A DNA stretch of 64,000 nt from Eledone cirrhosa (lineage: Eukaryota), in the NCBI GenBank assembly GCA_964016885.1, contig OZ024740.1, positions 104,284,001-104,348,000 on the forward strand, written 5' to 3'. Both the position numbers and the translations under genes were made by a program. Of this stretch, positions 1-62,433 are shown one piece after another (the stretch's first letter is position 1; each line of letters opens with the position of its first letter). The notes below the pieces were generated by a model that saw only the letters and a list, made by a program, of their open reading frames with translations, did not search any database and was not told the origin of the DNA.

Positions 1-874
1 TAGGAAAGGCGTAGGTAGAAACTCCATTTTATGTCCCAAATGCAAAGTATAGGCGCATGTAGTGGGATCACAGGTAAGCTAATTAAGAATATAGATTTTA
101 TATGTGGCCGGTGCTCTGGTGCAATAAGTAGCAGCAAGTGCCCACAGAATACTAGCTCATTCCATTGCACAGATGGTTCTATAGAAATAGTGGACACCTT
201 TCGTTACCTCGGTGACAAAATCAGCAGTGGTGGAGGGTGCTCTGAAAGTACAGTAGCTAGAGTCAGAACGGGATGGAAAAAGTTCAGAGAGCTTATACCA
301 CTATTGGCCGCTAAAGGGTTCTCTCTAAAAATGAAAGGCAGGTTGTATGATGCCTGCATACAAACAGCAATGTTACATGGAAGTGAGACTTGGGCATTGT
401 GTGCAGAGGATATATGCAGACTGGAGAGGAACGAAGCTTGCATGCTCCGTTGGATGTGTAATAGTAATATACGTGAACAGCAAAGCATAAATGAACTAAG
501 GGAGAAATTAGGAATAAGAGGGATCAGATGTTGTTTACTCGAGAGAAGACTATGTTGGTATGGTCACGTGATGCGCATGAAAGACGACAGCTGTATAAAA
601 AAGTGCAGGGCGATAAAAATAGACGATAACCACGGAGTAGGCAGAGCCAGAAAAACCTGGGACAACTTGATAAATTCCTACCTCACACACTTACACCTCT
701 CCAAGACAATGTCACTGGACCGAGATCTTTTGCGCTACGCAGTAATACAGAAGACCCGCCTTGCCTAAGTGCAAAGCGAAACCTACAGTCAGTAGGCACC
801 TCTTACCAAAATACACACCCATCCCACTACCTCCACCTCATCCACACCACCCCCTTGCGATGTAAAGTTATGTT
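1..874 (+). mobile_element. RTE LINE subfamily A, 3' portion (runs off window 5'; 3'UTR truncated by a PLE-like cassette)
   Basis: ORF 31..768 has RTE C-terminal motifs (FRYLG, GWKKFREL, LHGSETW, ERRLCWYGHVMRM). Near-identical to copies at 5061, 8241 and 25790. Confidence 0.93.
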
Positions 875-1396
875 CTATTTTTTTAAATAGAACATAAGGG
901 CAAATTAGAGAACATAAAAATAATAGAATCTACACACAGAAAAGAAAAGACGCAATGTTTAGACAAATCACAGAGGCAATAAACATAAATGAACTCCAAC
1001 CAAAATTAAATAGAAAACATGAATGGTAACATTTAAATAAACAAATAAATAAACAAATAAAAACACACACAGACAAATAAAAACACACACAGACACCCGG
1101 ATGTAACACATACGCAAACTAAGCACACAACACACACAAAAAGAAGATGGCGTAGGACAGAACAAAGGAGAGGCACAAAACAAAGAAAAGAATCCCCAGT
1201 CACTGAAGAGGTCACAGAATGTGTGACGAAAGAACTTTGACAATATATGAACCACCGTCCGGTTATGGAACCAACCAACCAACCGGATATTTTTATAAAT
1301 TCTTAAATTTATAAATTTAATTTATAATAAATTGGAGTGAAAGTAACTGGTGCGTGTGTTTCTTATTGGCAACATGACCCTCCCAAAGCATAACAA
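868..1396 (+). mobile_element. Non-coding PLE pseudo-LTR-like cassette with 5' fold-back and HHR-like motif, ending in (TA)n
   Basis: Hairpin ttatgttctattt/aaatagaacataa at 868-897; HHR-like motif at 1199-1241; (TA)n from about 1396. Confidence 0.5.
1199..1241 (+). ncRNA. Minimal, degenerate type I hammerhead ribozyme
   Basis: gtca CTGAAGA g gtcaca gaatg tgtgac GAAA gaac TT tgac. Stem I 4 bp, stem II 6 bp with one unpaired G, weak stem III. Confidence 0.55.
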
Positions 1397-1429
1397 TATA
1401 TATATATATATATATATATATATATATTG

Positions 1430-59599: not shown

Positions 59600-61000
59600 T
59601 ATAGTACTTAAAAAAAGGAAGTTTGTATGTTGACCGCTAATAACACTAAATAAAATTGATAATAATTAAGGTTTTTCTTGTGTTTTCAACTAATCTGACC
59701 TCCAACATGATCGCTAGCAACTTATTTTCTGAAAATGGAATATGGGATCTATGTAGGGGAGAATTTACTGGTACTGTACGTCCAACATGCTATCTATATA
59801 TAGAGGGAAATACTACTTCACTTCTCTCAAACTAAAACTTTTGTTGGTGTTTTCTTTTGTTGTCGGCCAATCTGACATCTGACTAACTCACCAATGACTC
59901 CTTTTTCCAAAAAACAGAGGTGGGGAGGGAATGGGACATTTGGAGTTACATATAAGCACATCTCAGCCGCTTGAATTTATAGAAAAGCAATTGCCTTCTT
60001 TTCCGAAAACGTTATTGGGGGGGAGACCCTCGGATTTTCCCAACCTCAGAAATTTCTTCAGTTAAATTTATAGTAAAGCAATCCCTTGATACTGAAGGAT
60101 GTTTTGATCCTTCATCATTTTCTACTTTAGTGGAAGGCCTTGTAAACTTAATTAATCAAGTGTTCCCCAATTTTGAAATCCACCATTCCAACGAGGTTTG
60201 GCTGTGTGTAAGAGCAATCCTTACCCCACAAAACGTCACAATGAATGCCATCAACAAAAATTTCTCCAAAATGATCCTTGGAGTTAACCAGACCTATAAA
60301 TATATTGACAAAATTGTTGACGAGGGTAAAGCTGTTTATTATCCCGTTGAATTTCTCAACAGTTTGGAACCTTCCGGTATGCTGTCACTGAAGAAGTGCA
60401 CAGCCATCATGCTTCTCAGAAGCCAGGATCAACCATCATTGTGCAATGAGATGCATATGGTTGTGACTGAGCTATAGCCTCACATTATCAAAACTAAAAC
60501 CCTCACTGGATGTGGTAAGAAGGACATCGTATTTATACCTAGAATACTGCTAATACCAACAGATGTCCCTTTTCATTTCAAACAATTGCAATTCTCAGAG
60601 TGAGACCATTAGTAACTCCCATGGTCAAACACTGCAGGTTGTCAGTCTCCTTCTAGAAGGGGCTGATTCTCCCATGGTCAATTGTATGTAGGTTATTCCA
60701 GAGTAGGAACACCCCACAAACTCATCATATATGCCCCCAAAGAAAAAAAGTTAAAAGCATTGGATATACTGAAGTTCTGTAAATGTTTCATAATTTTCAT
60801 AGAATACATTTTTCTATTATTTTCTTTATTATTTCTGTATTTAGATATTCTAAATACATTTTAAAAATCGTTATACAATATTTAAATACCTTTTAGCATA
60901 TTATTTTAAGGAAAATGGTCATTACGATGGATTCCAAAAGGTGCCTTATGAATAGATTTGAGTGCAGTACAGACCAGAGCAAAGTCTGGAAGGCTGCTAG
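59600..61000 (+). mobile_element. Degenerate Helitron with helicase remnant (5' end approximate)
   Basis: RAILTPQN..YPVEFLNSLEPSG..IMLLR (60130..60477), FIPRI, HGQLYVGYSRVG. 3' hairpin ccaga..tctgg then CTAG|t at 60997-61000. Confidence 0.8.
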
Positions 61001-62357
61001 TATCTATATCATTGTTTTATGTCCACACTGGAGTTGGTTAGATGGGTTGTCATGTTCTAATGACCACATCTTACTCATATGTTTCAGTTTGGTATCATTC
61101 TAAATTGGATGCTCTTCCTAAAGTCAACCATTCTACAGTGTGTAGTGGGTGCATTTTAAAGTGAACCCAGCACTACCTCTTTACAGAGTGGACTGAGTGC
61201 TTTTTATTGTGACACCAACGTCAGTGATAAATGATATTGATATTGAAAAAAAAAAATCTTTATACAGTGAGGATGAAACGTTTTCTTATCATTGACAAAC
61301 TTTATAATAGTTCCAAGTATGTGCTTTTTCCAAGATTCAAATCACACTGTAAATCTACATCATTAATCCAATAACAATATATAAATGACATATAAATTAT
61401 TCAGAACTATTGACATAGTGGATACAATGAAGAAACTAATGAGAAACCAGAACTACACTACTAATAGCTAATACTTTCCAGACCATGAAGATCCAGTACT
61501 GGTTTTTGGTTTCTATAGCACTAAGTAGACAAGAAATAAATCTTCAACTAAGAATTATCACAAGAGAAACAGAACTTAGCACTGTAAGCCAATAAACTAC
61601 AATGTTACCATAACAAGCTATAACATCTAAACCTAGTTAAAGCAAGATGGACTTAGCTATTTAGATTTAAACATCTTAGCCTATGAGATTGACTGTTAAT
61701 GCTCTGATGTTGCACTATATAAGCATTAATAGTGCATAAACAGCTTAACTCTTTGATGGCTTTCTAACTATCCACTCTTTTCAAAGTATAGCTGAATGAT
61801 TAATTCAAAGAACAACCAAGAATTTAAAAAATAACATCACCCAACCCAGCCATAGACAATTTGCCAAGGGCCAAGAGGACGCTTCAGTTATGCCAAAGAC
61901 ATGACAACCTCCATAAGGCTGGTGGTATGAGAAAACACACCCAGTACCCTCTGTAAAGTGGAAAAATGTATGTATGTGAGATATGGTTGCTGACCCATTT
62001 TAGAGGACATTTACAATAAAGTGCTGACTTTGTGATAACCCTTGCTAGCAGCGAAACCAGACTTTAAATGTTGATGATGATTATATATATGCATACACAC
62101 ACACATATATGTGTGTGTGTGTATATATATATATATATATATATATATATATATATATATATATATATATATATATATATATGCATACACACACATATAT
62201 ATGTGTATGTATATATATATATATATATACATACTGTAAATATTGATTCAATTCAATTCAAGCACTCAACATACTTCTTCCACATAGGAATGACAGAGTA
62301 TATTTAGAATAAGAAAATGCGAAGTAGTTTCAGATGTTAAAGTCCTTTATTGATAAG

Positions 62358-62433
62358 GCTGTGATACATATTTCGATGACGACAGTGGCCACCCCAAATC
62401 CGCATACCCAATGCCATGATCTCATCAGACAGC
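62358..62433 (-). ncRNA. Type I hammerhead ribozyme with intact core
   Basis: gctgt CTGATGA gatcatggca...tgtcgtcatc GAAA tatgta TC acagc, with aataaa 6 nt later. Confidence 0.8.

Follow-up and report, generated by a model that had tools for sequence, protein, structure and literature searches.

The question raised by a 64,000-nucleotide stretch of the Eledone cirrhosa genome (contig OZ024740.1, positions 104,284,001 to 104,348,000 of the forward strand; called the window below) is which elements carry the hammerhead ribozyme motifs found beside its (TA)n arrays, and whether their accumulation is peculiar to this locus. In a preliminary description of the window, made from the letters alone, about 11 type I folds were listed and attributed to many Penelope-like element (PLE) families or retrozyme-like passengers targeting TA microsatellites. 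The present analysis indicates that the motifs are, very probably, predicted type I hammerheads situated within the 3' ends of mobile elements that belong to nine families and are inserted at (TA)n, most of the copies being short, 5'-truncated remnants.

Hammerhead motifs of the window and the families that carry them

The motifs were searched for with a type I descriptor comprising the core boxes (CUGANGA and GAAA), an NUH cleavage site, and helices I–III, with helix II of at most 200 nt and helix I open; 100 block-wise dinucleotide shuffles of the window served as controls, and hits scoring at least 9 were called strict. Nine strict hits were obtained, against a mean of 0.18 and a maximum of 2 in the shuffles, none of which matched the observed count; for palindromic helices III of at least 6 nt, the figures were eight strict hits and 0.02, and, with G12A permitted, 11 hits and 0.75. 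The shuffle comparison, which the preliminary description had proposed as a check, thus came out in its favour. The scan recovered 10 of the 11 listed sites, and the eleventh (37329 + 39690) turned out to be a single motif, the halves of which are parted by a long interspersed nuclear element (LINE), so that the number of folds stands. One strict hit (+36583) was rejected as a chance match having no sister among 490 clustered motifs (see below); eight strict hits in the 64 kb are genuine.

The core is intact in eight of the 11 motifs (one of them with a family-wide extra base), two carry G12A, and one is split by the LINE. The three broken motifs are thus those at 17392 and 59205, with AAAA in place of GAAA in the window copy, and at 37324/39706. 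At the 59205 position GAAA is found in 25 of 29 sisters, and 14 intact motifs were scored among the sisters of the 17392 family. All features of a type I hammerhead (boxes, NUH site, helices, open helix I) were observed in seven window copies and in the sisters of the three broken ones. The motifs at 58160 and 58372 have a U3-A8 core. Among the further traits of the preliminary description, the palindromic stem III held for most motifs and failed for those at 1199 and 17392, AATAAA directly after the cleavage site was found in three of the 11, and the non-coding nature of the cassettes was confirmed in part, since the motifs at 18006 and 23834 flank a frame of 619 amino acids (aa) with reverse transcriptase (RT) and GIY-YIG domains and that at 1199 follows the end of another such frame.

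The window is rich in microsatellites and LINE copies (endonuclease, RT, and PHD domains), and a repeat finder was swamped by the former, still yielding two inverted pairs. Of the 185 matches in an Rfam scan of the window, 150 were listed; no hammerhead was among these, and nearly all were microsatellite-driven microRNA hits. The model RF00163, applied to the genome, gave 18 matches with 74 of about 415,510 preliminary candidates scored, which is not a count. Annotation of the Rfam style misses long-armed hammerhead variants.

DNA searches (one per family except D; 629–2,967 first-look candidates each, of which 40 were scored) revealed that each cassette is a member of a large repeat family. 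The motifs belong to nine families, i.e., six autonomous PLEs (A, B, D, E, G, and H), linked to PLE open reading frames (ORFs), and three non-coding, circularly permuted retrozymes (C, F, and I), and both halves of the proposed origin were therefore true (Table 1).

Judging from their motifs, the autonomous families appear to comprise five of the Hydra type (B, D, E, G, and H) and one of the Neptune/Nematis type (A). The latter assignment is suggested by the CX4CxxC linker between the RT and the CCHH-type GIY-YIG (frames in loci L170, L173, and L176); copies of family A carry a 466-aa RT/GIY-YIG frame (RVT_1, E 3e-4). The 830-aa protein of family D, the product of a single ORF, has the motifs RWR (standing for RWK), DKT, and CxCx5C and an RT followed by a C-terminal GIY-YIG without CCHH; these motifs were read on D alone, and families B, E, G, and H show 30–55% tblastn identity to this protein. 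A Hydra-like ORF lies directly upstream of family B in 11 of 25 loci, an endonuclease end lies 1.0–1.5 kb upstream of family G in four of 30 loci, and the E-ORF-E and H-ORF-H units measure 4.35 and 7.8 kb, respectively. Pseudo-long terminal repeats (pseudo-LTRs), tandem and inverted structures, and (TA)n insertion were all seen in the Hydra-type families. Assignment to Naiad/Chlamys PLEs (N-terminal GIY-YIG, no canonical hammerhead) was rejected because the endonuclease is C-terminal in D and A. A protein-cluster search returned PLE-like clusters (HTH_animal, RVT_1, GIY-YIG), mostly from Mollusca where the origin was recorded, which are leads only.

The window copy of family D is 5'-truncated, holds both hammerheads, and lies between two (TA)n tracts. 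The family appears to be very young, as the C-terminal part shows 99–100% aa identity in all 150 copies scored (at least 150 exist), many of them with the 830-aa frame, and it forms tandem and inverted arrays with units of 6.3–6.6 kb. Contigs of runs X1 and X4, compared with a family D copy, gave presence only and no joints. About 2.5 kb of degenerate TA/TG microsatellite within the D 3' untranslated region (UTR) is mostly 93–98% identical between copies where these align in one piece, i.e., an active element appears to spread microsatellite-like DNA. The family E hammerhead is contiguous in all 24 sister copies examined. Families G and H lie tail to tail with a common (TA)n at 59296–59327; the two bases at core position 7 of H (59449–59456, minus strand) recur in 28 of 29 sisters (28 of the 30 copies scanned), and a relative with a normal core occurs in locus L288.

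Structurally, families C, F, and I are non-LTR retrozymes. Their units (about 506 bp, 314–322 bp, and about 1,229–1,289 bp, respectively) are non-coding, contain one type I hammerhead, and are repeated head to tail, the sequence upstream of the ribozyme wrapping into the unit's own 3' end (circular permutation). No PLE match was found in these units, in which the longest ATG frames have 34–61 aa. Copies longer than one unit account for 22 of 30 in F and 17 of 25 in C; a second motif was seen in F (L116, L124, and L126) and I (L340), and only in part in C (L226). It is likely that the three families borrow the enzyme of a Penelope-like element.

Table 1. Hammerheads and associated elements of the window (positions counted from its first base)
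Feature	Position	Strand	Remarks
Predicted hammerhead cores	+1203, +14857, -17461, -18150, +23844, -58224, +58401, +59213, -59456, -62428	by sign	descriptor scan
Family A, 3' end of Neptune/Nematis-type PLE (putative; GIY-YIG ORF end and 3' UTR)	885..1399	+	minimal hammerhead 1199-1241, predicted cut after 1237; adjoins (TA)16
Family B, 3' end of putative Hydra-type PLE	14503..14928	+	inverted piece 14503-14589 (-) ending (CT)n(AT)n; hammerhead 14853-14890, predicted cut after 14886
Family I, decayed twelfth copy, absent from the preliminary list	15191..15326	-	core A6->G; alignment backs 15256-15326, remainder by eye
Family C, retrozyme-type unit	17211..17801	-	0.96 unit and inverted piece 17692-17801; hammerhead 17392-17469, G12->A in window copy
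Family D, inverted pseudo-LTR copy at 5' junction	17952..18312	-	hammerhead 18006-18160, 116-nt helix II
Family D, 5'-truncated RT and GIY-YIG ORF	18332..20191	+	619-aa stop-free frame, 830 aa in full copies; Hydra-type motifs
Family D, 3' UTR	20192..23681	+	3.5 kb; element-borne, rich in degenerate TA/TG microsatellite
Family D, 3' pseudo-LTR (23682-24042) and tail	23682..24179	+	hammerhead 23834-23988, predicted cut after 23978; adjoins (AT)28
Family E (putative Hydra-type PLE end), hammerhead 5' half	37225..37355	+	core at 37329
5'-truncated LINE (RT and PHD) within helix II of family E hammerhead	37356..39677	-	6-bp target duplication 37350-37355 / 39678-39683
Family E, hammerhead 3' half and tail to (TA)33	39678..39880	+	GAAA at 39690, predicted cut after 39701
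Family F, two inverted copies, 58017-58358 (-) and 58356-58579 (+)	58017..58579	.	U3-A8 hammerheads 58184-58228 (-) and 58397-58441 (+); (TA)n both sides
Family G, 3' end of putative Hydra-type PLE	58852..59327	+	hammerhead 59205-59275, G12->A in window copy
Family H, 3' end of putative Hydra-type PLE	59296..59534	-	hammerhead 59371-59461, family-wide extra core base
Family I, 0.22 unit	62232..62520	-	hammerhead 62358-62433; adjoins (TA)56

Conservation of the fold and density in the genome

The first scanner favoured a palindromic helix III, and 39 unselected 10-kb samples were hence scanned again with this preference removed; locus L302 was excluded from this palindrome and covariation scan, as well as from the motif clustering and the 3'-end tally. 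With helix III pairing not demanded, 38 of 42 hits were perfect palindromes (G-U allowed) and a palindromic helix III was present in 16 of 19 distinct types; the shuffles gave 0.7 hits and no palindromes. Covariation, the second check named in the preliminary description, was observed at core positions 3 and 8, where the 338 palindromic motifs from all fetched loci, copies of which are not independent, had C3/G8 in 271 cases, U3/A8 in 51, and mixed states in 16.

The 490 motifs from all fetched loci were grouped into 47 clusters, 30 of them with at least two members. AATAAA after the cut was the majority state in six of these 30 clusters, against a background of 2%; the inserted ends extend beyond it, and no poly(A) tails were seen in the ends inspected. 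For the helix III palindromes, self-duplexes of -2 to -19.5 kcal/mol were predicted, which is consistent with dimer cleavage. Helix II measures 26–116 nt in families D, E, G, and H, the arm of D being a predicted rod of 116 nt (z about -7.5), and several helix II bases are mismatched. In loci L280, L285, and L288, the helix II arm of 79–97 nt branches into two hairpins (z about -5 to -6 in the two that were folded).

Density was estimated in 40 stretches of 10 kb taken at round-number positions (399 kb). They gave 73 hits (3.5 on average in shuffles), of which 19 were poly-T satellite artefacts of L302 and were dropped before the count, 11 lay in the 310-bp tandem retrozyme of L290 and were counted apart, and 43 were dispersed. 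Dispersed motifs thus occur at about 1.1 per 10 kb (rough 95% range 0.5–1.5), against 1.25 per 10 kb in the window; 19 of the 40 samples had no hits and four were denser than the window (at least five dispersed or tandem hits). The window is ordinary for this genome, and what had been described as a dense local swarm is the genome-wide background of about one motif per 10 kb. A total of about 3x10^5 motifs (150,000–450,000) in 3.0 Gb is likely. Published counts are 126,247 canonical motifs in the 28.21-Gb genome of the axolotl (PMC7229834) and 2,000–9,000 minimal motifs per genome in schistosome, coelacanth, and frog (PMC4209133). The density in E. cirrhosa appears far above these counts, in a comparison that is indicative only, as the descriptors differ between studies and the one applied here is more relaxed.

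Insertion ends, copying cycle, and alternative explanations

Each family has one to three sites at which its 3' ends accumulate; these sites lie beyond the predicted cut on its downstream side (range 36–273 nt) and adjoin simple repeats. They were found at +139 (17/30) and +164/167 (11/30) in F, +185/188 (13/25) and +273 (9/25) in C, +128–139 (28/30) in I, near +37 and +100 in B, and near +61 in D. These tallies are biased, the queries having crossed the cut, and the ends were hence retested on incidental copies in the loci of other families, among which 91 span the cut, two end at it, six have other end points short of +15, and 44 begin close to the cut or beyond it. In family F, 10 of 30 alignments span two cut sites, seven of them by at least 25 nt. 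Copies that run across the cut imply a template continuous at this point, which may be an uncut multimer or a religated circle, and the genomic data cannot separate the two. A survey of 5' flanks revealed that many 5' junctions are inversions. At several start sites the sequence closes with a short TA-like or CT-like stretch that keeps the phase of the flank. This is a hint of pairing with the primer, and a weak one for most families, as only 2–3 nt in AT-rich RNA are concerned.

According to the cycle proposed here, the GIY-YIG domain would nick (TA)n and the RT would prime within the RNA at one to three preferred sites, 36–273 nt downstream of the hammerhead cut, copy back through the ribozyme, and usually fall off or invert early; being copied first, the hammerhead region would outnumber all other remnants. 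Pseudo-LTRs, tandems, and copies longer than one unit would result when the RT reads through on a multimeric RNA or on a circle formed by cutting and religation, and the palindromic helix III would likely let two motifs pair and cut as a dimer. A circle route was proposed by Cervera and de la Pena (PMC4209133), and for the lizard Poseidon internal priming downstream of an uncut hammerhead in vitro and a protein-assisted hammerhead were reported (PMC11167929). We think it reasonably probable that cleavage has some role in the cycle, and most solo genomic copies are likely silent fossils.

Several points weigh against this interpretation. The PLE clade names were assigned from motifs and not from a phylogeny, and a Pfam search placed the 830-aa D protein in no family. 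The 5' starts lie within 6 nt of the cut in nine of 44 short copies, with about five expected (a rough figure); there is no clear enrichment, and a role of cleavage in template making is therefore not supported by the ends. For minimal hammerheads of PLEs, weak or protein-dependent cleavage has been published (PMC4209133, PMC11167929), and eight of nine frog retrozyme dimers did not cleave (preprint 10.64898/2026.07.22.740005). The hammerheads of the same elements might thus be structural or regulatory passengers that rarely cleave, with uncut read-through RNA from tandem copies as the template. Such an account fits the 91 of 93 informative incidental copies that run across the cut, the F alignments over two cut sites, the undiminished insertion of catalytic mutants in vitro (PMC11167929), the helix II mismatches, and the extra core base of family H. 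However, a cut-and-religated circle yields an identical genomic pattern, and about 30 multi-copy clusters, the arms of which are unrelated, have retained the core, the 3/8 covariation, helix I, and the palindromic helix III, which argues for selection on the catalytic fold; rarely cleaving passengers are possible, and we regard them as rather unlikely.

The remaining alternatives are far less probable than rarely cleaving passengers. An account in which every cassette would be a stand-alone retrozyme, unconnected with coding elements, is hard to reconcile with the data. In its favour, the window copies are mostly short and lack coding sequence, three families (C, F, and I) consist of such units, and L290 holds 11 units of a tandem retrozyme. 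In six of the nine families (A, B, D, E, G, and H), however, a PLE ORF is attached in the orientation to be expected, which refutes this explanation for them. Equally doubtful is a special hotspot or host-domesticated ribozyme cluster: the distribution is clumpy, with eight genuine strict hits in the window and none in 19 of 40 samples, but the dispersed hits have nearly the density of the window, four samples exceed it, and three of the 11 window motifs are broken. Chance folds in AT-rich sequence can practically be dismissed. The relaxed scanner did produce false positives in one satellite (the 19 hits of L302) and the unsupported hit +36583, but none of the 100 shuffles reached the observed count, and for each of the listed motifs conservation was seen within a large repeat family.

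The priming sites of family B end in CT, and among 55 distinct B ends, 25 carry at least (CT)5 before (TA)n, in phase with the element's own CT, and none carries (AG)n. In 14 back-to-back B pairs, (CT)n was found at one or both ends in 11 and its complement at the partner end in none. Had the insertion split a tract already present in the target, the complement should appear at the partner end, and (CT)n therefore likely arose at or after insertion. Against stuttering of the RT, (CT)n(AT)n is common and directional in unselected sequence as well (19 vs one of the other order), mostly with no preceding B end, and three of these tracts come after E and I ends. Slippage during later replication, starting from the junction, is hence a real rival. 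The most far-reaching picture, which we offer tentatively and consider improbable as a whole, is that about 3x10^5 hammerheads, at about 20 times the axolotl per-base density, stem from dozens of Hydra-type elements and retrozymes copying circular RNAs by internal priming, and that stuttering of their telomerase-related RT at the priming site adds new microsatellite with each insertion, family B being the marker. If so, PLEs would be an engine, and not only a tenant, of the (TA)n and (CT)n(TA)n landscape.

Relation to known elements and further observations

The putative Hydra-type families of the window share with the published Hydra clade (PMC8557442) the C-terminal GIY-YIG, the RWK-like and DKT motifs, the CxCx5C linker, (TA)n insertion, and a hammerhead near the 3' end with a short symmetrical helix III, in some cases with a U-U pair at the base of helix II. 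Hydra elements with hammerheads in (TA)n were reported by Craig et al. in 2021, including Hydra-1_Obim of Octopus bimaculoides (PMC8557442). The published families are mostly shorter than 3 kb and have a short helix II (PMC8557442), whereas here the units reach 4.35–7.8 kb, the microsatellite-rich 3' UTR of D extends over 3.5 kb, helix II comprises 26–116 nt in D, E, G, and H, and at least five Hydra-type families occur in one window. In common with the minimal hammerheads of metazoan PLEs (PMC4209133) are widespread solo motifs, many variable families per genome, the palindromic helix III, an unpaired base after A9, the U3-A8 core, and inverted pairs 100–700 bp apart; the 2,000–9,000 motifs per genome given there contrast with about 3x10^5 here, a sample-based estimate obtained with a more relaxed descriptor.

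Similarly, families C, F, and I resemble animal non-LTR retrozymes (PMC7229834; preprint 10.64898/2026.07.22.740005) in their non-coding, low-GC units with one type I hammerhead, their head-to-tail repeats and monomers, and the PLEs present alongside. They differ in being mostly dispersed copies of 0.2–2.4 units, fixed at (TA)n and often 5'-inverted, and not long arrays, and the family I unit (about 1.25–1.29 kb) exceeds the 51–972 bp range in the main text of the preprint by Li, Clavereau, and Pollet. In the same 2026 preprint (10.64898/2026.07.22.740005), retrozymes are regarded as PLE derivatives. PAc Poseidon of Anolis (Frangieh et al. 2024, PMC11167929) likewise starts RT at two internal sites downstream of the cut, with alternative "tails", AT-rich targets, and uncut RNA; its start site is not homologous to the target, whereas several start sites here are in phase with the flank.

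The unannotated ribozyme layer assumed in the preliminary description is thus not new in kind, since Hydra-type and Neptune-type elements and non-LTR retrozymes were known already (PMC4209133, PMC8557442, PMC7229834). What seems fresh is the scale, the helix II arms of up to 116 nt, the 1.3-kb retrozyme, and the (CT)n tails that seemingly arise at or after insertion. A 2026 repeat annotation of octopus lists 31 recently active Penelope-like families, and the word ribozyme is not used in its available text (PMC13282606); in the literature, coverage of which was incomplete, we found no genome-wide cephalopod hammerhead census and no report of PLE-made (CT)n tails. Family D, apparently very young and with many full 830-aa frames, may offer a ready system for studying PLE hammerhead function and the origin of pseudo-LTRs, and the (CT)n tails allow the idea that a PLE reverse transcriptase gives rise to microsatellites to be put to the test.

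Several minor features were also recorded. A classic tandem retrozyme with a 310-bp period and a CGCG helix III, absent from the window, was found in L290 (11 units), L070, and L144. In L113 and L129, the 5' inversion junctions of family F lie at the palindromic helix III, which suggests snap-back during reverse transcription, and L126 holds an F dimer, the 5' side of which is joined to a degenerate, telomere-like (AACCCT)n array. At 17283–17303, antisense to family C, a 15-nt stretch matches helix II and the GAAA box of family B at 14 of 15 positions (a relic or chance), and a short segment at 58640–58790 with a CTGAAGA half motif lies between two outward-facing (CT)n(TA)n compounds. The LINE copies at 1578–5000, 8240–11477, 25778–28830, and 37356–39677 have an APE endonuclease, an RT, and a PHD finger after the RT, with an (ATC)n end beside (TA)n; they may be of the RTE type. 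Finally, a dispersed 180-bp repeat, possibly a short interspersed nuclear element, occurs at 32170–32352, 35503–35684, 47524–47703, 48765–48946, and 54241–54643 (at least six copies, 81–90% identity) and also inside L275.

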